DNA of 64,000 nt from Patescibacteria group bacterium (GTDB lineage Bacteria; Patescibacteriota; Minisyncoccia; Phycocordibacterales; XYD1-FULL-46-19), in the NCBI GenBank assembly GCA_048617235.1, contig JBMCHT010000001.1, positions 54,043 through 118,042 on the forward strand, given 5' to 3'. Of this stretch, positions 1,678 to 56,552 are shown in pieces. The notes beneath the pieces were generated by a model, which saw only the letters and a program-made list of their open reading frames with translations, did no database searches and was not told the DNA's origin. The position numbers and the translations under genes were made by a program. Position 1 is the stretch's first letter. Each line of letters starts with the position of its first letter.

Positions 1678-3465
1678 ATGAGTCATAAAATAACGACCAG
1701 ACACTTAAAAACCAGTTTTAAGGTGATAGGTGATTTTTTTAGAAAATATCGCCGGCAAGTGACCATTTTACTGATTTTAAATTTAATAATTGCCGTTGGT
1801 AATGCCACCGTTCCTTTTATTACCGGTAGATTTTTTGATGCCCTTCTAAATCCGGAGGCTGTTTTCAATATTGGTCAATATTCCATACCCTTGGTTTTGG
1901 GTATTTTAAGTATTTTATTTTTAATTCAATTAATTTTGGCTTTAATTGATTATAATAATGGTTACCGCTCGGCTTTAATTACTTTTTTATCTCGACATGA
2001 TCATCAGTTAAAATCTTATGACAGATTATTAGAACTACCTTTAGCCTTTCATAAAAAACATAAAATTGGCAGCATTCAAGGTAAAATCACAGAAACCGGT
2101 TGGGGAATGCAAACTCTAGTTGGTCGCTTAATTAATCAAACCGGTTTTACTTTGATTTCCGGTTTAATCGCTTTGGTTGTTATTTTTTATATCCATCCTT
2201 TGATGGCCTTATTTACCTTAACCGGTTTACTTATTTTTTTAATTTTCTCTACTCTAAATTTAAAACATACTGCTTTTGCTGAGCATAAATTTTATCAAGC
2301 TTTTGATATTGCTTATGGAGATGTTTATGACTCTTTAGCCAACATTTCCGCTATTAAACAAGCAGTATCCGAGGAGTATGAAAGAAATAAATTAAGGAAA
2401 AATTTTATTAAAAGATTGCAACCTTTGTGGATGACTTCGGAAAATATCTGGCGTAATTTACGATTTCAACAAAGAATAGTCATTATTTCGGTACAATTAG
2501 TGGTTTTTATCTGGTCAATAAAATTAGTAACTGACGGTATTATGTCTATAGGTGATTTAATTGCCTTTAATGCTTACTTAACTATGGTTTTTGGTCCTTT
2601 TGTGGAAATACTGGATATGTCTAAAACCGTTCAAAACGCTTTGATTAATATTGGTAATTTAGAAAAATTACTCAGTTATCCGGCGGAGAAATATCAACCA
2701 ACCAATAAAAAAGAATTGAAAAATATAAATGGAAAAATAAAATTTGATAATGTCTCTTTTAGCTACAAGCGTCGGGAACCGGTATTGGAAGATATTAGTT
2801 TTGAAATTGACCCGGGGCAAGTAGTAGCTTTAGTGGGAGAGTCCGGAGTGGGTAAAAGCACTTTAATTAACCTACTTTCGGCTTACTATTTCCCAACCAA
2901 AGGTAAAGTTTTAATAGATGAAATTAATATTCGTAAATTAGATTTGGGGTTTTTGCGATCTCAAATTGCCATTGTCCCTCAAGAAGTGGTTTTGTTTAAT
3001 GATACTATCAAAAGTAATATTAAATATGGTAATTTTAAAGCTAAAGACAATCAGGTGAAAAAAGCAGCCGAGCAAGCTCATGCCTTGGATTTTATTGAAA
3101 AATTCCCTAAAAAATGGAATCAGTTGGTGGGCGAAAGGGGAGTTAAATTATCTGTCGGTCAAAAACAAAGAATAGCCATTACTCGAGCTATTTTAAAAGA
3201 TCCCCGAATTTTAATTTTAGATGAACCAACCTCGGCTTTAGACGCTCGATCGGAAAAAATTATTCAGAAGTCTTTAAATGAATTAATGAAAAACCGAACT
3301 ACTTTTATTATCGCTCATCGTTTAAGTACTGTCAGAAAAGCCGATTTAATTTTAGTTTTAGAAAAAGGTAAAATAGTGGAAAAAGGAAACCACGATCAAT
3401 TAATTCAAAAACAAGATGGGACTTATCGAAAGTTATACGAATTACAAATAGGTTTACACGAATAA
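1678..3465 (+). CDS. ABC exporter, fused permease/ATPase (MsbA/multidrug-like)
   Basis: 6-helix N-terminal TMD. Walker A 'GESGVGKST', ABC signature 'LSVGQKQR', Walker B 'ILILDEPTSALD'. Confidence 0.85.
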   Translation: MSHKITTRHLKTSFKVIGDFFRKYRRQVTILLILNLIIAVGNATVPFITGRFFDALLNPEAVFNIGQYSIPLVLGILSILFLIQLILALIDYNNGYRSALITFLSRHDHQLKSYDRLLELPLAFHKKHKIGSIQGKITETGWGMQTLVGRLINQTGFTLISGLIALVVIFYIHPLMALFTLTGLLIFLIFSTLNLKHTAFAEHKFYQAFDIAYGDVYDSLANISAIKQAVSEEYERNKLRKNFIKRLQPLWMTSENIWRNLRFQQRIVIISVQLVVFIWSIKLVTDGIMSIGDLIAFNAYLTMVFGPFVEILDMSKTVQNALINIGNLEKLLSYPAEKYQPTNKKELKNINGKIKFDNVSFSYKRREPVLEDISFEIDPGQVVALVGESGVGKSTLINLLSAYYFPTKGKVLIDEINIRKLDLGFLRSQIAIVPQEVVLFNDTIKSNIKYGNFKAKDNQVKKAAEQAHALDFIEKFPKKWNQLVGERGVKLSVGQKQRIAITRAILKDPRILILDEPTSALDARSEKIIQKSLNELMKNRTTFIIAHRLSTVRKADLILVLEKGKIVEKGNHDQLIQKQDGTYRKLYELQIGLHE

Positions 3466-4983: not shown

Positions 4984-5899
4984 TTTTAATATTGTTAATA
5001 AAATTATATTAGTGATTGCCACTTTAGGACTGTTTTCACTTATTATTATCGGCTTACCTTGGCAAGAAGCCAATAATTCCTTACAACTGGCGGCAATTGA
5101 AGCCGGATCTCCAAACCAAGAACAACCGGTTGATTATTGGACAGAATTAGAATTATCAGCTGAAGCTGCCGCTGTTTATAATATAACTACCGAAGAATTC
5201 ATTTTTGAAAAAAAATTAAATAAACATCTGCCAATCGCTTCAGTAACCAAATTAATGACCATAATTACGGCAGTTGATTATTTAAATTATGAAGACAAAA
5301 TAACTATCGAATCATCTGAGGCCGGAATAATAAGCAGCGCCGGTTTACAAACAGGAGATACTTGGAGATTTGAAGATTTGGCTCGTTTTACTTTAATTAC
5401 TTCCAGTAATGGGGGAGCGACAGCTATTGCTCGAGCAGCCGGTCAAAAAGCCGGAGATGAAAATTTTATCAGTTTGATGAATAAAAAAGCTAAAGATCTT
5501 GGTTTAAATAATACTTTTTTTGTTAATTCAACAGGTTTGGATGTAGGTGGTCAACACAGCGGTTCTTATAGTACCGCTCGAGAAATAACTTTATTAATGG
5601 TTAAACTGTGGCAACAAGAATCAGATTTACTAACTTCAACCGGTTTAACTTCAACTTCTTTTACAACTACAAGCGGCCGTCGCTACCCAGCCACCAACAC
5701 TAATAAGAAAATGGATATTATGCCCGGTTTAGTGGCTTCCAAAACCGGATATACCGGTAACGCCGGAGGTAATTTAACTACAGTGGTAGATATTGGTCCG
5801 GGAAATTATTATGTCATTACAGTTTTAGGATCTACTCGAGAACAAAGAACCGAGGATATCAGTAAAATGATCTTTACTCTTATTAAATCTTTAAAATAA
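4934..5899 (+). CDS. dacA: D-alanyl-D-alanine carboxypeptidase (serine peptidase S11, PBP5-like). Start may be ATG 4946.
   Basis: SxxK 'SVTKLM', SxN 'SSNGGA', KTG 'KTGYTG' motifs. N-terminal TM/signal. Confidence 0.8.
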   Translation: MKVKMKQKTKLMKKKINFNIVNKIILVIATLGLFSLIIIGLPWQEANNSLQLAAIEAGSPNQEQPVDYWTELELSAEAAAVYNITTEEFIFEKKLNKHLPIASVTKLMTIITAVDYLNYEDKITIESSEAGIISSAGLQTGDTWRFEDLARFTLITSSNGGATAIARAAGQKAGDENFISLMNKKAKDLGLNNTFFVNSTGLDVGGQHSGSYSTAREITLLMVKLWQQESDLLTSTGLTSTSFTTTSGRRYPATNTNKKMDIMPGLVASKTGYTGNAGGNLTTVVDIGPGNYYVITVLGSTREQRTEDISKMIFTLIKSLK

Positions 5900-5906
5900 T
5901 ATAATT

Positions 5907-6974
5907 ATGACCGGTATATATCTAGATATTTTCAAAGTCTTTGTACCAACTTTAACCGCTTTTGTGGTGGGAATTTCTTTAACCCCTGTTTTAACTCATT
6001 ATTTATATAAACATAAATTATGGAAGAAAAAAGCCGGTAAAATCTCTCCCGACGGACAAGCCACTCCGGTTTTTGATCGTTTACATAAAGATAAAGAAGT
6101 GGGCACGCCACGCATGGGGGGGGTGGTTATTTGGAGCAGTGTTTTAATTACAATCACTTTTTTTTGGCTTATATCTATTCTAATACCTGAATCCGATTTT
6201 TGGATTAAACTTAATTTTTTAAGCCGAAATCAGACATGGTTACCTTTATTTACTTTAATAGTAGCTTCTCTTTTAGGTTTGGCTGATGATTGGCTACAAG
6301 TATCTAGCACCAACAAAACCAATGAAGGTTTACCTTTTAATTATCGTTTATTGGTAGTCGGTTTTCTTGGATTAGTTGGAGGTTGGTGGTTTTTTGCCAA
6401 ATTAGGAATGACAGAAATCAGTTTACCTTTTTTTGAAAATAACCTTTATTTAGGCTGGTTAATAATACCGTTATTTATAATAATAATGTTAGCTTTGTTT
6501 TCCAGTGGAGTAATAGATGGATTAGACGGATTATCCGGTGGAATAATGTCTATAATCTTTTTCACTTATGCCGCTTTGGCTTTTTTTCAAACTCAAGTTA
6601 ATTTGGCTACCTTCTGTGCCGTGGTTGGTGGAGCTATTTTAGCCTTCTTATGGTTTAATATTCCGCCGGCTAGGTTTTATATGTCTGAAACGGGCATCTT
6701 GGGTTTAACCACCGCCTTAACAGTTGTAGTCTTCTTAACTGATTCTGTTTTATTATTACCAATCATTGCTTTACCATTGGTTGTCACTTCCGGTTCAGTG
6801 GTTATCCAAATGTTATCTAAAAAAATGCGACACGGTAAAAAAATCTTTAAGATAGCTCCTCTTCATCATCATTTTGAAGCTATTGGTTGGCCAGCCTATA
6901 AAGTGGTAATGCGTTATTGGCTGATAGGGATAATAGCCGCCATTATTGGTTTAATTTTAGCCTTAATCAGTTAG
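5907..6974 (+). CDS. mraY: Phospho-N-acetylmuramoyl-pentapeptide transferase
   Basis: Polytopic membrane protein. 'LADDWLQ' Asp pair, 'APLHHHFE' His motif. dcw context. Confidence 0.9.
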   Translation: MTGIYLDIFKVFVPTLTAFVVGISLTPVLTHYLYKHKLWKKKAGKISPDGQATPVFDRLHKDKEVGTPRMGGVVIWSSVLITITFFWLISILIPESDFWIKLNFLSRNQTWLPLFTLIVASLLGLADDWLQVSSTNKTNEGLPFNYRLLVVGFLGLVGGWWFFAKLGMTEISLPFFENNLYLGWLIIPLFIIIMLALFSSGVIDGLDGLSGGIMSIIFFTYAALAFFQTQVNLATFCAVVGGAILAFLWFNIPPARFYMSETGILGLTTALTVVVFLTDSVLLLPIIALPLVVTSGSVVIQMLSKKMRHGKKIFKIAPLHHHFEAIGWPAYKVVMRYWLIGIIAAIIGLILALIS

Positions 6975-12879: not shown

Positions 12880-13186
12880 AATGAATTAGAAACAAGAACC
12901 ACTCAGATTAGATTAGACCTGAGTGGTTTTTGTTTGTTTTAATTTATTTGAATGGTTCGCAAAAGATATATTGTGCGAACCACTATTATCTTTATTCTAG
13001 CTATAAAAAACAACCCCCCTATGCATTTTTTAATTAAAATCTAATTTATCAATCAATTAAATTAAAAACTTTTAATAAAATAAAAAACATATTACACCTC
13101 TCCCCATTTAATCTCTTCCTTTCTTTAATATCTTTAATAAACTAATTTTATTGATTTAAATAAAAAATCTATCCACTCCACTCCCC

Positions 13187-13215
13187 TTGCCTAAAATCCA
13201 AATATTAGTCATAAT
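13187..13215 (+). promoter_or_regulatory. Sigma70-like promoter TTGCCT-N17-CATAAT
   Basis: Hexamers at 13187-13192 and 13210-13215 with 17-nt spacer. Drives the GC-rich element that follows. Confidence 0.4.
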
Positions 13216-13216
13216 A

Positions 13217-13500
13217 AAAATGGACTGTGCACCACAACTAAAAGGGAGGGAGGTGATTCTTATCGGCACCCAAACCACCACAAAGATGCCCGTTTTCAAA
13301 ATCTCGGAACACCGAGATGAAAACGGCTTCTTCAGCGTCAAACCGGTAAAGGCAACCCCGGTCGCCCCTACCAAAAACGGCAAAAAAGAGGAACCCGTCA
13401 AGCGGGATCCTCGCAACTAGCCTCACCCCCGGAGAAGCATATGATTATAGTCTCATACGGTGCACCCGAGACAAATCATGTCCTTCTCCGGGGCTTTTTT
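13217..13500 (+). other. GC-rich promoter-to-terminator unit, either a structured RNA or a small-protein mRNA (44-66 aa; ATG 13220, GTG 13253 or ATG 13286, stop 13420). Unclassified.
   Basis: ~55% GC in a ~35% GC background. 'AAAGGGAGGGAGG' purine tract. Long-range pairing GTGCACC/GGTGCAC. Terminal hairpin CCCCGGAGAAG...CTTCTCCGGGG plus T6 at 13427-13500. Confidence 0.35.
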
Positions 13501-41483: not shown

Positions 41484-43739
41484 TTAAATTTTTATAGCTT
41501 TTTGTTTTAAAACGCCTTTAGTTAAATTCATTTCGGCTGAAGTATGTATTTTTTTATAAGAACCATCCGCTTGTTTAGCTTCTATTGTCATATAATAACG
41601 TCCGGGTTGTAATAAAACATAAAAGCGTCCAAAGGCATCAGTTACCATCTTTTTTACTTCTTGATCTAAATCGACCATATAAAAACGAATAATAGCAAAT
41701 GACAAAGGTTGTCCATTATAGGAAACCACGGTTGCCAGATGAATCTTTTTCCAAATTTGTTGAAATATAAAAATTAAAATGTAAGCCACTAGTAAAGAAA
41801 GATTGAGCCATGAAAAACCGGTAGTAACCGACCAGACTGTTGCCAATAAACCGGCCCAATAAATAAAACCGGTAAATCGTCTTAACCACAACTCTCTGCG
41901 TGTATATACTTGAAAATATTTAGCCTGACTCTTGGTATATTCATTCCAATCAAAACCAACCGGATCCAATGGAATATTTTTATTAATCACATTTTGACCA
42001 CCAGCCTCCAATTCTTCGCCGAAATAAAGATTATCATATAATTCATCTTCTTGACGACCGGCCAAAATATTTGAAGGAAAACGATAATGAGTTTTACCGG
42101 CTTCCAAATAATATTGACCGGGTGGTAATAAAAAACCATAACGACCATCAATATCCGTAATAGCTGAAGTTTGTTTCTCTTTATTTATTGTAGAATAAAC
42201 ATTTATATAAGCGGGATCTATCGGGCGCTTGGTTACGGCATCATAGACCACTCCCCAAGGACGACTTTTTCTACGATAACCTAACCAACCAATTAAAGCT
42301 GCCAACCATCTTAAAAGTAAAAGATAGATATCAGTAAACGACCATAAACTCAAAGACGCTCCGGCCACTTGAAGAACACCGGCTGTTAAACCAACTCCGC
42401 TTAAAGCCGGGGCTGCCATTTTCTCTACAGTTTGTGAAACTGTAGCCGTTGCCGGCCAGGCCGTTATAGTAATTTCTCCTTCTAAACGACCTAATATTTT
42501 TTGATCTTCAGTTAAAAAAGAAACCGCTGCCGGCACCTGGCCGGTTTGCCTAAAAGCCGGTAAAATTCCGGAATAAACTCCTTCAGATTCTTTTAATAAT
42601 ATAGCTATTGTTTGGCCACTATTCGGATCTGAGGTAGAAAAAACCAAAGTCTCTACAAAAGAATCGACTTTATCGGCAGAAATTCTAACCTCAGTATACC
42701 AATCCGGTTTTAAATTATAATGACCGGTAGCTTTAATTAATCTACGACCATCTTCTTGAATCAAAGCAAAATCAGACCACACCGGTAAAGAAAAATCTAA
42801 ATCAATTTCTCCCGTTTGTTCAAAATATTCAAACGGATCAAAAAAATCTTCAACAATATCATCGTCTACCGGATAAAAAGGATCATCGGAATCATCAGGA
42901 TCATCGGAATCATCAGGATCATCGGGATCATCAGGATCATCGGGATCATCAGGATCATCGGGATCATCGGGATCATCGGGATCATCGGGATCATCGTCTT
43001 CATATTCACAAGAACCGTCGTCGGTTATTGCCAAAGGGTCATAATTAATAGCTTCAGGATCAGTACAACCTGTGTCGGGATCATCGTCTTCATATTCACA
43101 AGAACCGTCGTCGGTATTGGCCTCCGGATTATAATTAATCGCTTCCGGATCGGTACAGCCAAGTATTGAATCATAAACTCCCGGCACCGCCACAAAAGCT
43201 ACTACTCCGGAAGAAATAACTTCATCTGTCGCCACCGCGAAAGCGGTATAATAATATAATTCACCATTTTCCACCTCAGTATCTATAGCTACCTCTCCCG
43301 AACCTTCATAAATTAATTGCCCTTGATCTATATCTGTTGGAATATAATCAACCAGACGACGAATAATTATATAATCTAATCTATCCCCTGTTGGATTTTG
43401 CCAATCTAAATTAACTCGCATTTGTTCTTGATTATAAGAAGCTACAAAACCATCAGGATTAGGCATCGACCCCAATTCATATTCACAAGATCCATCATCA
43501 GCAGTAGCTTCAGAATCATAGTTAACCGCTTCCGGATCAGTACAACCCCAAACTGTCCCTCCACCACCGCCGCCACCACCGCCACCACCAGTATCTTCTT
43601 CATTTATAGTAACCGAAACATCTAAGGCCAAAGCCGGATAACTTATTATTAAAAAGACAGGCAAAACAGCTAAAATCGCAAAAAATAAACGATGATTGAA
43701 TTTTCTTTTTAAAGCTGAAAAAAACATTTTATAAAGCAA
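41484..43739 (-). CDS. Giant repeat-rich cell-surface protein with carboxypeptidase-regulatory-like domains and internal TM helices
   Basis: N-terminal signal anchor. G11 run. Three 'GCTDPEAxNY...DDGSCEYE' Cys modules. (DPD)n tract. Internal TM helices. 'DIDGRYGFLLPPGQYYLEAGKTHYRF' and 'GRFYVLLQPGRYYMTIEA' CarbopepD_reg-like beta-sandwich motifs. Confidence 0.6.
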   Translation of the reverse strand: MLYKMFFSALKRKFNHRLFFAILAVLPVFLIISYPALALDVSVTINEEDTGGGGGGGGGGGTVWGCTDPEAVNYDSEATADDGSCEYELGSMPNPDGFVASYNQEQMRVNLDWQNPTGDRLDYIIIRRLVDYIPTDIDQGQLIYEGSGEVAIDTEVENGELYYYTAFAVATDEVISSGVVAFVAVPGVYDSILGCTDPEAINYNPEANTDDGSCEYEDDDPDTGCTDPEAINYDPLAITDDGSCEYEDDDPDDPDDPDDPDDPDDPDDPDDPDDPDDSDDPDDSDDPFYPVDDDIVEDFFDPFEYFEQTGEIDLDFSLPVWSDFALIQEDGRRLIKATGHYNLKPDWYTEVRISADKVDSFVETLVFSTSDPNSGQTIAILLKESEGVYSGILPAFRQTGQVPAAVSFLTEDQKILGRLEGEITITAWPATATVSQTVEKMAAPALSGVGLTAGVLQVAGASLSLWSFTDIYLLLLRWLAALIGWLGYRRKSRPWGVVYDAVTKRPIDPAYINVYSTINKEKQTSAITDIDGRYGFLLPPGQYYLEAGKTHYRFPSNILAGRQEDELYDNLYFGEELEAGGQNVINKNIPLDPVGFDWNEYTKSQAKYFQVYTRRELWLRRFTGFIYWAGLLATVWSVTTGFSWLNLSLLVAYILIFIFQQIWKKIHLATVVSYNGQPLSFAIIRFYMVDLDQEVKKMVTDAFGRFYVLLQPGRYYMTIEAKQADGSYKKIHTSAEMNLTKGVLKQKAIKI
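42878..42996. repeat. Tandem 9-bp repeat (GATCATCRG)x~13 within the surface-protein gene, encoding (D-P-D)n on the minus strand
   Basis: Directly visible: ggatcatcggaatcatcaggatcatcgg... repeated in phase. Confidence 0.85.
42987..43170. repeat. ~92-bp tandem duplication (two near-identical units; third diverged copy ~43465-43560) encoding the Cys-module repeats
   Basis: 'gatcatcgtcttcatattcacaagaaccgtcgtcggt...' occurs at 42987 and 43079 with few mismatches. Confidence 0.75.
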
Positions 43740-49411: not shown

Positions 49412-50392
49412 ATGACAGACAATTTTTATAATAATTTTATAGCTGAATTAAAAAGTTGGTCTCAACAATTAAAATGGCAACCAGACATTGAATTACCTAC
49501 CCTAGCCGAAAATCTTCCTATTGTTGTTGCCGGTATGGGCGGTTCCGGTTTACCCGGTCGCATCCTTAAAACTTATAGCCAAAAACAAATAATTAATCAT
49601 CATAATTATGGTTTACCTCAAAATATAACCAAGGCTACTTTAGTCGCTATTTCCTATTCCGGCAATACCACAGAAACTATAGATGCTCTAAAAACCGCTC
49701 TCAAAGCCAATTGGCCGGTTGTAGTTATAACCGGTGGTGGCCAATTAAAACAATTAGCTATCGATTATAATCTTCCACTGATAGAAATTCCCCCGATAGT
49801 TTCTCAACCTCGACTGGCTTTACCAATAGTAACCAAAATCTTGGCTCATATCTTATTAGAAACAAATATTATTCAAGAAATAGAAAAGACCGCTAATCAG
49901 TTAGCTTTTGATTCTTTAACAAGCATTGCTCAAGCTATGGCTCAAAATACCCAAAATAATTGGCCGGTTATTTTAACCACCGCTGAATACGCTACCTTAG
50001 CCTATATTTGGAAAATTTCCATTAATGAAAATGCCAAAAGACCGGCTTTAATTTCCATTATTCCGGAAATGAATCACAATGAAATTGAAGGTCTCTTAAA
50101 TAACAAGCAAGAGATTTCTCTAATCGCCCTCACCGCTTCCCAGAAAAACAATCATCCAAATCAAAAAAGATTAAATTTAACTTTAGAAATAGCCAAAGAT
50201 TTAAATCAAGTAACTTTTGTTTATGATTTACTTAACGAACAAATTAATAATTTTTGGAATGGAACACTTTTAGGTAATCTTTATTCTCTGGAATTAGCTA
50301 AAATCAATGGAACTGATCCCTTAACTGTTCCCGTAATAGAAAAGTTCAAACAAAAGTTATCCTCTACAGATGACTTTACAAAAAAGATTTAA
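49412..50392 (+). CDS. SIS-domain bifunctional phosphoglucose/phosphomannose isomerase (archaeal-type)
   Basis: 'VVAGMGGSGLPGRIL' and 'AISYSGNTTET' SIS motifs. Two-SIS architecture, ~326 aa. Confidence 0.65.
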   Translation: MTDNFYNNFIAELKSWSQQLKWQPDIELPTLAENLPIVVAGMGGSGLPGRILKTYSQKQIINHHNYGLPQNITKATLVAISYSGNTTETIDALKTALKANWPVVVITGGGQLKQLAIDYNLPLIEIPPIVSQPRLALPIVTKILAHILLETNIIQEIEKTANQLAFDSLTSIAQAMAQNTQNNWPVILTTAEYATLAYIWKISINENAKRPALISIIPEMNHNEIEGLLNNKQEISLIALTASQKNNHPNQKRLNLTLEIAKDLNQVTFVYDLLNEQINNFWNGTLLGNLYSLELAKINGTDPLTVPVIEKFKQKLSSTDDFTKKI

Positions 50393-50473
50393 GTTATACC
50401 ATTATAAATGGAGAGAAAGTTATAGGAAGACTTTCTCAAGAAGGAAAGAAAAAGGAAGGAAGGAAGGGAAAAT

Positions 50474-50815
50474 ATGTCCGTAGTAGCCTCACACCCGCCG
50501 GCCGTTGAGCCGGCAAACGATCAAGTGGTACTGGAAGTCTCGGACTTCGCCTCGGGAAACCAGGTTGCCCGAAACCTCAAACTGGGCAACCGGTACGGGC
50601 GTCCGATGACTCAAGACGAGGTTCTGGAACAGAGCCTCGACCTCCTACAGGAGGGCGTCGCCATCCTCTGCCCGGGCCCCGGGCAGAAAAACTGCATCAT
50701 GATCTATACCGACGGTCGCGGCAACATTGTGGCCACGATCATTGAAGAGACGACCAGTTTCCCGGCCGGGGACTTCAAGGTCGCCTACATGGTGGCCGTC
50801 CCCAATAATTTCTAA
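50474..50815 (+). CDS. High-GC (~60%) small protein of unknown function. Likely foreign origin or an unusual constraint.
   Basis: 113-codon ORF after a 60-nt polypurine leader ending 'AAGGAAGGAAGGAAGGGAAAAT-ATG'. GC3-rich codon usage unlike neighbours. Followed by a terminator hairpin. Confidence 0.5.
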   Translation: MSVVASHPPAVEPANDQVVLEVSDFASGNQVARNLKLGNRYGRPMTQDEVLEQSLDLLQEGVAILCPGPGQKNCIMIYTDGRGNIVATIIEETTSFPAGDFKVAYMVAVPNNF

Positions 50816-50833
50816 CCCCCCTTCCCACAACCA

Positions 50834-50867
50834 CCCCGCGCCAAACTTGGTGCGGGGTTCTCTTATA
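50834..50867. terminator. Intrinsic terminator shared by the high-GC ORF (+) and uppP (-)
   Basis: CCCCGCGCC-aaacttg-GGTGCGGGG (9 bp with one G.U), followed by TTCTCTT. Confidence 0.5.
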
Positions 50868-51654
50868 CTAAACCTATCAATAATAACCAAATAAAAACAC
50901 CACCGAAAATAATACGGTAAAAACCAAAAGCAGTAAAACTAAATTGAGACAAAAAAGCCAGTAAACCTTTAATCGCTAAAATACCAATTAGAAAAGATAA
51001 AACAAAACCAAACAACAATAATTCTTTTTCTCCGCCTGAAAAATAAATTCCTTGTTTGAAAAGATCATAACCACTGGCAGCCAACATAGTCGGTACCGCT
51101 AACAAAAAAGAAAATTCTATAATGGTTTTACGAGATAAACCCAAATACAAACCACCTAAAATAGTGGCCGCTGATCGTGATACTCCCGGAATAAAAGCCA
51201 CCGTTTGGCAAAAACCTAAAAAAAGAGCCTGTTTAAAAGAAATTTTATCTAATTCTTCTATTAAATTGAAATCAGCTCGTTTATACCACCATTCAAAAGC
51301 AATTAAAACTATTCCACCTATAATTATTGCCCCACTAGCTAACCATAAATTAGTTAAAATATTACGCAAAACAGAATAAAATAAAAAACCAACCAAACCG
51401 GTAGGGATAAAAGCGATTATTACTTTCAATAAAATTTTAGGTTTAACCAATAAAGAATTAAAATATAAAACAATTACCGATAAAATAGTTCCTAGTTGGA
51501 TAACTATATCAAAACTGGTTTTAAAAACCGATTCTTCTATTTGTAATAAAGCCCCAATTAAAATCAAATGAGCGGTGGAAGAGATCGGCAAAAATTCTGT
51601 TATACCCTCAACTAAACTTAAAACCAAAGTAGACAACCAACTCATATTAATCAA
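50863..51654 (-). CDS. uppP: Undecaprenyl-diphosphatase
   Basis: 'EGITEFLPISSTAHLIL' BacA signature, 8-TM protein. 'PGVSRSAATI' second motif. Confidence 0.85.
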   Translation of the reverse strand: MINMSWLSTLVLSLVEGITEFLPISSTAHLILIGALLQIEESVFKTSFDIVIQLGTILSVIVLYFNSLLVKPKILLKVIIAFIPTGLVGFLFYSVLRNILTNLWLASGAIIIGGIVLIAFEWWYKRADFNLIEELDKISFKQALFLGFCQTVAFIPGVSRSAATILGGLYLGLSRKTIIEFSFLLAVPTMLAASGYDLFKQGIYFSGGEKELLLFGFVLSFLIGILAIKGLLAFLSQFSFTAFGFYRIIFGGVFIWLLLIGLV

Positions 51655-55069: not shown

Positions 55070-55097
55070 TTGACTTTAACAATATTATATTTATACT
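55070..55097 (+). promoter_or_regulatory. Sigma70-like promoter TTGACT-N16-TATACT
   Basis: Hexamers at 55070-55075 and 55092-55097, immediately upstream of the structured RNA. Confidence 0.4.
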
Positions 55098-55103
55098 ACA
55101 TTA

Positions 55104-55322
55104 TAGATGGGAGAAGGTGGCCGATCTAAGGCAAAAACCAACACACAATTCAGTAAAAAAACGCCTTGGTATTAACCACCTTCTCCCCTTCCTTCTGCCT
55201 TTTAAAGATAAAGCGGGGTCGAGACGACCCAAATCCCACAAACAGCTGTGAGGCCTGTTTGATGAAAGATTAGCCGTTCTCGGCTCCGCCCCCAACCCCC
55301 GAATAACTCGGGGGTTTATTTA
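55104..55322 (+). ncRNA. Candidate ~215-nt structured RNA (unclassified), promoter-to-terminator unit with no downstream same-strand gene
   Basis: 12-bp perfect closing helix GGGAGAAGGTGG(55109-55120)/CCACCTTCTCCC(55176-55187). Hairpins GGGTCG-aga-CGACCC and CAAACAG-N9-CTGTTTG. Terminator CCCCCGA-ataac-TCGGGGG plus TTTATTT. Confidence 0.45.
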
Positions 55323-55836: not shown

Positions 55837-56265
55837 TTAGCGAGTCAAAATTTTGTCCACGCAGGGAACAAGGTGAGGCAATTGAAGACAGATTGTATTC
55901 CGCAACTCAAATACCTCACCGGGGGTAGAAGTGTGTTTAAAAGCGCCTTGCAAGCAAAGCTTAATCATCACCTCGGCCAATCCCTGTAGTGACTGACTCT
56001 CAAAAATAAGACTATCAATCAGCTTAATAATCTTTATCAAGTCAGCCGGTTCTTTGGCCTGAAGTCGAGCTTGGCACAAGGCCCTTAAAGCCAAGAGGCC
56101 GTCAATCCGACTGAAGGCCCGGCCAACCTCCAACCACTGCCAACACGCCAGATCCTCAATCAAAAGACCTTGAAAAAAGCGCTGGGCTTTCTCCCTAGTT
56201 TTCGATTGAGAATTTTGATTGACATACTGATTAAAAAGCTTCAGCATCTGATTCAAATCAGCCAT
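55837..56265 (-). CDS. Hypothetical alpha-helical protein (142 aa), second gene of a GC-richer two-gene operon. Start at ATG 56265, not the longer ORF-track call.
   Basis: Strong RBS 'AGAGGAGGA' 6 nt upstream. Start 1 nt after the zinc-ribbon gene's stop. Downstream hairpin plus T6 terminator (~55795-55830). Confidence 0.5.
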   Translation of the reverse strand: MADLNQMLKLFNQYVNQNSQSKTREKAQRFFQGLLIEDLACWQWLEVGRAFSRIDGLLALRALCQARLQAKEPADLIKIIKLIDSLIFESQSLQGLAEVMIKLCLQGAFKHTSTPGEVFELRNTICLQLPHLVPCVDKILTR

Positions 56266-56266
56266 C

Positions 56267-56443
56267 TTAAGTCCTCCTCTTTTTGCCCTCCAAACATTTC
56301 GGACACAAGTACCGACGCTGTCCCCGCTTATCCTTTTTGACAACCAAAGCAAAGGCCTGAACCCTGTTCGACCAGCGACCGGATTGGCCACAAATATCAC
56401 AAACCTGATTGTCCGGCAAAGAATAATAGACAGATACCTTCAT
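56267..56443 (-). CDS. Small zinc-ribbon protein (58 aa, CxxC-N27-CxxC)
   Basis: 'MKVSVYYSLPDNQVCDICGQSGRW...RYLCPKCLEG'. RBS 'AGGAAGAAG' 7 nt before ATG 56443. The ORF-track TTG extension is unlikely. Confidence 0.5.
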   Translation of the reverse strand: MKVSVYYSLPDNQVCDICGQSGRWSNRVQAFALVVKKDKRGQRRYLCPKCLEGKKRRT

Positions 56444-56552
56444 TTTCTTCTTCCTTCTGTTAAAGACCCGAGTTTCTATTACAGCAAACAAGAAAAGTTA
56501 TTAAAAAGCAAGCCCTTGCCTCTTTGGGTAATATCGGGCAAAATATTAAGAT

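Follow-up and report, generated by a model that had tools for sequence, protein, structure and literature searches.

In this study, we analyzed a GC-rich island, and the single gene that it carries, in a 64,000-nucleotide stretch of DNA (the window, to which all coordinates refer unless a relative is named) from a 187,117-bp contig of a metagenome-assembled genome (MAG) of the Patescibacteria. The host stretch has a G+C content of 35.1%, and the island (~50400-50862) exactly fills the 470-bp gap between the stop codons of two convergent genes, one for a bifunctional phosphoglucose/phosphomannose isomerase (PGI/PMI) and the other, uppP, for an undecaprenyl-diphosphatase (UppP/BacA). Within it, an open reading frame (ORF) of 113 codons runs from 50474 to 50815 on the + strand; it appears in the list of ORFs of the window and is annotated at NCBI as MFW5853120.1 (ACOCU8_00585, 'MAG: hypothetical protein ACOCU8_00585 [Patescibacteria group bacterium]'). 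An earlier note, made from the letters of the window, had described an ORF of this length with about 60% GC between PGI/PMI and uppP, and the description held: the ORF has 58.8% GC and both of its neighbors were identified by Pfam. The PGI/PMI gene (49412-50392, + strand) matched the bact-PGI_C profile with E = 5.7e-31 over profile positions 5-151 of 151, and uppP (50863-51654, - strand), which is convergent with the island ORF, matched BacA with E = 7.8e-68 over positions 2-256 of 257. Both genes are complete, and PGI/PMI is of host composition, with a GC content of 0.336 and a GC content at third codon positions (GC3) of 0.254; the GC3 of uppP is 0.212.

The island ORF is the top GC peak in the 64 kb, at 0.588 versus 0.351 for the window (z = 5.2 among all windows of 340 nt). 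Its GC3 is 0.746, compared with 0.260 +/- 0.045 for the 53 host ORFs of at least 150 residues (z = 10.8), and the z-score is 17 when the comparison is made with the 43 host ORFs of at least 200 residues. An index built on host codon usage, similar to the codon adaptation index (CAI), gave 0.32 for the island ORF versus 0.67 +/- 0.05 for host ORFs. These two comparisons bear out the claim of the earlier note that codon usage here is radically unlike that of the neighboring genes: the commonest codons of the island ORF are GCC, CCG, AAC, GAC, GTC, CTC and GGC, whereas those of the host are TTA, AAA, GAA and ATT. The GC contents at codon positions 1, 2 and 3 are 0.63, 0.39 and 0.75, an order (GC3 > GC1 > GC2) found in the + frame only, and the positional difference was matched by 0 of 20,000 shuffles. 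Similarly, the period-3 power of the ORF, 3.85, lies far above the maximum of 1.72 reached in 5,000 shuffles. Conditioning on an open frame cannot produce this periodicity, since at the composition of the island the exclusion of stop codons removes only ~3% of codons. As the GC excess is periodic and concentrated at synonymous third positions, the island is a protein-coding sequence that evolved under high-GC pressure, and not a structured RNA. The encoded amino acids lean in the same direction to a lesser degree than the codons, with lysine at 2.7% versus 7.3% in host proteins and a GARP/FYMINK ratio of 1.11 that exceeds the host mean of 0.69 and falls inside the host extremes. Genomic GC is said, following Muto and Osawa, to relate to positional GC, and values of 63, 39 and 75% at the three positions would correspond to a donor genome of roughly 58–62% GC.

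The ORF is accompanied by signals of its own on both sides. Upstream, a weak sigma-70-like promoter candidate (TTTACA-16-TACCAT, 50375-50402, + strand, 9 of 12 positions matched) lies over the PGI stop codon, and a transcript from it is predicted to start near 50410; with three promoter-like sites in the region, the count does not clearly exceed the 1.4 +/- 1.0 expected from shuffles. The 5' leader has a hairpin formed by GAGAAAGT and ACTTTCTC (50413-50437, + strand; 8 bp, 9-nt loop), a 100% complementary inverted repeat (I20) that is present in both the minimum free energy (MFE) and the centroid folds. The hairpin is followed by a pure purine run of 35 nt (50438-50472, + strand); the next longest homopurine or homopyrimidine run of the window measures 19 nt. 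This run holds four copies of AAGG in tandem (50452-50467) and a Shine-Dalgarno (SD) core, GGAAGGG, at 50462-50468, 5 nt upstream of the ATG; GGAAGGAAGG occurs three times in the window versus 0.21 expected. The 60-nt, entirely purine leader of the earlier note has to be shortened accordingly, as purines make up 79% of the 73 nt that lead from 50401 to the ATG, and the hairpin within this stretch contains pyrimidines. Downstream of the ORF, a C-rich 3' spacer, CCCCCCTTCCCACAACC (50816-50832, + strand, read from the sequence), includes CCTTCC at 50820-50825, which is predicted in the full-length fold to pair with six bases of the purine run (p = 0.98). On a role of the leader in keeping the RBS (ribosome-binding site) open the predicted fold points both ways: the purine run is 0.51 unpaired, compared with 0.35 +/- 0.07 in control leaders, whereas the predicted pairing with the 3' untranslated region (UTR) leaves the SD core unpaired at only 0.30. 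The unit ends in an intrinsic terminator (50833-50868, + strand; inverted repeat I6) that was found by a terminator scan and has an 11-bp stem with eight G-C pairs, a 4-nt loop and the tail TCTCTTATAC; its hairpin occupies 50833-50858 and its T-rich tail meets the uppP stop codon (50863-50865). It is the sole terminator-like site in 50200-51000, and PGI has no terminator of its own ahead of the island. A fusion of the island ORF with PGI, or translational read-through between them, was considered and rejected, as the two share a frame but two in-frame stops (TAA at 50405 and TAG at 50432) intervene.

The ribosome-binding site (RBS) of the island ORF differs from what its host uses. With a generic anti-SD sequence the SD duplex has an energy of -9.0 kcal/mol at ideal spacing, whereas the host minimum is -7.8 kcal/mol at longest-ORF starts and -3.5 kcal/mol at called starts. 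No SD enrichment was detected in the host: 3.4% of longest-ORF starts reach -6 kcal/mol versus 4.5% of random positions, and among the starts assigned by the annotation pipeline around the island, none of 20 genes is stronger than -3.5 kcal/mol. The host genome has essentially no SD usage, and the RBS, the codons and the terminator of the island are all donor-style. In four related genomes (L081, L085, L087 and L088) an SD was seen in 5–21% of genes.

The protein encoded by the island is an orphan at every level that was searched, which agrees with the earlier statement that it has no recognized motif. Among 5.8 billion clustered proteins its sole match was itself. HMMER, run exhaustively on 1.84 billion sequences that represent ~15 billion proteins, returned the protein itself and three weak matches (P0002-P0004, E = 3e-7 to 3e-4), which were discarded as they are long repetitive proteins that match different 20–45-residue pieces of the query with scores summed over repeats. 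No match to the protein was obtained in Pfam, PHROGs, PADLOC, NCBIfam or the sequences of the PDB, a tblastn search of JGI metagenome contigs and IMG/VR gave nothing, and no match to the island was present in phage and plasmid collections at either the DNA or the protein level. The product has a mass of 12.2 kDa and an isoelectric point (pI) of 4.5, with no hydrophobic segment and no signal-like N-terminus. As to the small beta-rich fold suggested in the earlier note, a single-sequence AlphaFold2 model of the protein is unreliable, with a mean predicted local distance difference test (pLDDT) score of 41.6.

In the comparison with relatives, no genome close enough to share the locus was present among those sampled. 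The closest PGI anywhere is only 35–38% identical (in GTDB genomes and the 5.8-billion protein set, the latter with a best value of 38%), and none of 80 PGI loci in GTDB genomes has uppP or other neighbors from the window nearby. For UppP, the best match in JGI contigs reaches 45% identity and belongs to an organism of 50% GC. Relatives identified through ThrRS are closer (67–71% identical), and their gene order differs from that of the window. One of these, L084 (JGI 3300037722; ThrRS 69% identical, 43% GC), has an insert of 1,155 nt at its positions 2225-3379, between the genes for RNase III and SMC, a pair with a spacing of 22 nt in L085 and 15 nt in L087. The insert carries a promoter that matches consensus at 11 of 12 positions (TTGACA-17-TATACT) and two small membrane-protein ORFs with significant period-3 and a GC3 of 0.73, compared with 0.434 +/- 0.044 for their host (z = 6.7). 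Both ORFs have purine-rich SDs (-8.2 and -5.7 kcal/mol), and each is followed by G+C-rich hairpins recognized by eye. GC-rich, self-contained inserts of small genes between housekeeping genes thus occur in this clade, with insertion proven by the empty site, and by analogy the L084 insert would back the same reading for the island in our window. The other GC peaks in the relatives are tRNAs. Separately, we observed that one leader in the L084 insert shares the decamer GGAGAGAAAG with the island leader (50410-50419), and that a tandem repeat with a 17-nt period (GCTAGTGGCTAGTCGCTA...) lies immediately upstream of SMC in L084. Other small insertions in the relatives, at 5159-6126 and 12197-15040 in L085 and at 5054-8641 in L087, show active small-scale gene flux in the clade; they comprise, in L085, a toxin-antitoxin pair (AbiEii/DUF6922) located between L32 and RNase HII, and inteins in GyrB of L085 and DnaE of L087.

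Several explanations other than gene acquisition had to be weighed against these data. The earlier note had itself offered strong RNA-level constraint as a cause of the high GC content, an idea that fails to explain a period-3 GC excess peaking at codon position 3 and for which no Rfam family was found. In its fuller form the gene would be native and its GC-richness kept by selection on the mRNA as a structured, regulated or dual-function RNA, which we consider improbable. The better-than-shuffled folding of the + strand (z = -5.7, versus z = -3.4 for the antisense strand) speaks for such selection, as do the predicted pairing of the 5' leader with the 3' UTR and the RNA-like nature of other GC-rich spots in the genome. 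However, an excess that alternates between 0.75 at position 3 and 0.39 at position 2 is a coding bias and not a helix constraint, the RNA-like GC-rich regions of the window have no period-3, the amino-acid usage leans toward high GC, and even at E <= 10 the best local Rfam matches in 50300-50950 had E = 2.3-6.3, far below the gathering score. The island could instead be a non-coding structured RNA gene, with the 113-aa ORF left open by chance, given that RNA genes usually account for GC-rich islands in AT-rich genomes and that an open frame of 113 codons has a chance of ~2% per frame at this composition, a length that is not compelling in itself. The gene caller used for a second deposited assembly, GCA_964402165.1, in fact picked an antisense ORF here (81 aa, 50645-50890). 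That ORF was rejected as a coding frame, as its pattern of GC1 > GC3 is atypical and it has no SD. A periodicity reached by 0 of 20,000 shuffles, a canonical SD at a distance of 5 nt from the earliest start codon that the frame offers, and the lack of any tRNA or tmRNA at the island by ARAGORN or of any Rfam family there at the gathering score (in a scan of the whole window) leave the RNA gene a very improbable explanation.

The possibility that a piece of a high-GC organism was misjoined into the Patescibacteria contig, as an assembly artefact or contamination, also deserved attention, given that the genome was assembled from a metagenome, that the composition boundaries are very sharp and that the sequence comes from a single organism. 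We compared the window with GCA_964402165.1, where the island is 100% identical on a contig of 186,952 bp and the sole difference lies in a tandem-repeat array near 43.0-43.2 kb. That difference marks the second assembly as a separate build, and the identity of the island in it therefore counts against a chimera, which is unlikely, with the reservation that the two assemblies may share reads. In addition, the 81-aa antisense ORF begins within uppP and crosses the right junction of the island, and its exact sequence is on record from both NCBI and Logan assemblies. The island is internal to the 187-kb contig, host genes on both sides end at its borders, no matching high-GC contig was present in any collection searched, and a random piece of 400 bp would rarely amount to a complete unit of RBS, ORF and terminator; taken with the second assembly, these observations make a misjoin highly unlikely. 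A different explanation accepts that the fragment is foreign and holds that it does nothing, being a piece picked up through transformation or illegitimate recombination that happens to bring along one whole donor gene, RBS and terminator included, and that is tolerated in a neutral convergent gap while it decays. We view this as unlikely. In its favor, nothing related to the gene was found and the gene shows no sign of selection, a donor-style RBS may be useless in a host that does not rely on SD-led initiation, the promoter is only a weak candidate, and a gap between convergent gene ends is the least disruptive site for junk. Yet the fragment is exactly one complete unit with no partial donor neighbors, neither a frameshift nor a stop interrupts its ORF, useless DNA tends to be lost fast from small streamlined genomes, and read-through from PGI would transcribe the island anyway.

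The reading that we favor, and consider likely, is that the island is a horizontally acquired, self-contained single-gene cassette in a low-GC Patescibacteria genome. Recent acquisition from a high-GC donor, one of two options in the earlier note, emerged as the best reading from the GC3 excess, the amino acids, the foreign-style RBS and the filled versus empty sites of the L084 insert. Transcription would run on into the cassette from PGI, a gene on its strand from which no terminator separates it, would begin at the weak promoter over the PGI stop, or both; translation would be initiated through the SD (the 16S rRNA of the host lies outside the window); and transcription would end at the hairpin of the cassette itself. 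The product would be a small, acidic, cytoplasmic protein. Entry would have taken place without an integrase, most plausibly by illegitimate recombination of DNA acquired through the competence machinery that is widespread in Patescibacteria, and the source of that DNA may have been a high-GC neighbor or host, or the mobile elements of such an organism. Patescibacteria are described as having received genes one at a time, as carrying genomic islands and as taking up DNA by competence, and recent cross-phylum transfers have rarely been caught among them (PMC12455944).

A number of observations weigh against this cassette being a recent acquisition. No donor or homologue turned up, although a gene that has not ameliorated implies a recent transfer. 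The island carries no mark of mobility: integrase, transposase and phage genes were absent among its neighbors (phage genes were checked within +/-10 kb and integrase across the 64-kb window), the only tRNA in the window by Rfam and ARAGORN is a tRNA-Glu at 26.9 kb, and at the borders neither terminal inverted repeats nor a convincing target-site duplication were seen. The 6-nt sequence TTATAC is present at both borders (50394-50399 and 50863-50868), a pair that could plausibly arise by chance in AT-rich DNA. No sampled relative is syntenic at PGI/uppP, hence no empty site was seen at this locus, and the ORFs of the L084 insert are not homologous to the island protein, so that the insert serves as an analogy only. 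Finally, the island is represented by one sequence, which gives no signal of purifying selection. That a gene which has not ameliorated should have no homologue among ~15 billion proteins suggests either a pool of donors that is unsampled or mobile-element genes that evolve very fast.

The earlier note had also proposed that the leader is complementary to CU-rich tracts in two candidate small RNAs. Both are present as small-RNA-like units. Unit 1 (~4332-4207, - strand) has a promoter that matches at 12 of 12 positions (TTGACA-17-TATAAT, 4367-4339), a 13-bp terminator (4253-4221), an unpaired 5' CU tract, CCUUCCUUCCCUC (4321-4309), and a 17-bp internal hairpin. Unit 2 (~55105-55320, + strand, in the region 55070-55320) is ~210 nt long, with a promoter that matches at 10 of 12 positions (TTGACT-16-TATACT), a terminator at 55294-55316, a 12-bp closing helix (GGGAGAAGGUGG/CCACCUUCUCCC) and a CU-rich single-stranded tract, CUUCCUUCUGCC, half of which is buried in a helix in the predicted fold. 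Neither unit has a credible match to an Rfam family, and unit 2 has no period-3 signal. The complementarity that had been proposed is real, as each unit contains a perfect 10-nt complement of the island leader, but the leader is a top-ranked target for one unit only. For unit 1 it ranks third among non-self targets, at -19.1 kcal/mol versus a mean of -3.9 (standard deviation 3.2). Unit 2, at 55.1 kb, was rejected as a specific regulator of the leader, which falls outside its 12 best targets. Since no purine run in the window is longer than that of the leader, any CU tract will score well against it, and the pairing of small RNA and leader is thus a weak lead and not evidence. A purine tract within 13150-13450 also ranked near the top as a target of the unit 1 CU tract. 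That region is the second-highest GC peak in the window (~0.51), and with no convincing ORF, no significant period-3 and no Rfam match found in it, it may be an undescribed RNA. The more ambitious proposal that the island and the L084 insert belong to an undescribed class of GC-rich, SD-led, terminator-bounded and integrase-free mini-cassettes, inserted in the gaps between housekeeping genes of low-GC Patescibacteria that lack SD usage, perhaps derived from high-GC hosts via competence, is a long shot. Under this proposal the leader would be a handle for post-transcriptional control by unit 1, in which the unpaired 5' tract CCUUCCUUCC pairs perfectly over 10 nt with the island leader, and foreign genes would be silenced at the RNA level.

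Elsewhere in the window the gene content around the island is of a housekeeping character, with DNA polymerase III delta', MreB, PriA, Def, Fmt, HPF, PGI, UppP, GSDH, TyrRS, ThrRS, penicillin-binding proteins (PBPs) and aminoacyl-tRNA synthetases (aaRS). A second, milder composition outlier is an ORF at 55837-56400 (- strand), with a GC content of 0.465 and a GC3 of ~0.50 versus 0.26 for the host; it has 187 aa as the longest ORF and 142 aa in the NCBI call. It is overlapped by an ORF of 74 aa that has two CxxC pairs and the look of a zinc ribbon. No match was found for this region (55837-56491, - strand) in Pfam, PHROGs, PADLOC or NCBIfam, and it could be a foreign islet that arrived earlier or has ameliorated in part. 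The other GC-rich spots of the window have no sequence similarity to the island. The tandem repeats at 42880-43157 (a period of 9 in 13 copies and a period of 90 in 1.9 copies) are within an ORF of 751 aa (41484-43739, - strand) and mark the one place at which the two deposited assemblies disagree, which suggests that the array is collapsed or variable and situated in a probable surface protein.

If the island is indeed a transferred cassette, it would show very cleanly what a foreign gene looks like soon after its arrival in the ultra-small, streamlined genome of an episymbiont, with the whole unit still in donor style (a GC3 of 0.75, a strong SD and a GC-rich terminator) in a recipient with a GC3 of 0.26. 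Such a gene could be a marker of the partners with which uncultured bacteria exchange DNA, for example a high-GC host. It could also be a test case for whether the ribosomes of Patescibacteria that make no use of SDs express a foreign gene that is led by one. By itself the island changes no concept, as single orphan genes acquired by horizontal gene transfer (HGT) are common.

Among the known systems close to the island in form are the morons of phages, a concept due to Hendrix and Juhala, which are extra single genes with their own promoter and terminator and an odd composition, located between genes that are adjacent in relatives. The island is likewise one small gene between two intact genes, with a composition unlike that of its neighbors, its own RBS and an intrinsic terminator, and its L084 analogue shares the filled versus empty sites and has a near-consensus promoter. 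Unlike a moron, the island sits among chromosomal housekeeping genes and not in a prophage, and its own promoter is a weak candidate. As a low-confidence guess, its product could be an accessory protein of the binding or inhibitor type, as is typical of moron-like passengers. It resembles Acr/Ard-like anti-defence proteins in being small and acidic (pI 4.5), but it differs from them in having no mobile-element context, no helix-turn-helix (HTH; aca) neighbor and no PADLOC or PHROG match.

A second frame of comparison is the amelioration of transferred genes, for which Lawrence and Ochman reportedly provided the framework. With the atypical orphan ORFs (ORFans) and genomic islets of recent transfer the island shares an atypical GC content, GC3 and codon usage, the lack of homologues and the form of a small single gene; it differs in the extremity of its contrast, which reaches as far as the translation-initiation signal, and in having no mobility gene, tRNA or repeat. 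Other mobile units fit it less well. An integron gene cassette consists of a promoterless ORF and an attC recombination site, and the island is likewise a single compact ORF followed by a palindrome, orphan and of foreign composition. This assignment was nevertheless rejected, as its 3' palindrome is no more than an 11-bp terminator hairpin, there are no RYYYAAC/GTTRRRY cores at the borders and there is no integrase in the 64 kb. A miniature inverted-repeat transposable element (MITE) or an insertion sequence (IS) was likewise set aside, since terminal inverted repeats and a convincing target-site duplication are both absent. The island behaves like a moron or a compositionally atypical HGT ORFan, one that comes without a donor homologue, a mobility signature or a prophage context. 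It is almost certainly a recently acquired foreign gene of a known kind and a fairly ordinary oddity, whose unusual points are the extreme contrast with its host, a donor-style RBS in a genome that makes no use of SDs, and a protein that stands without relatives among ~15 billion.

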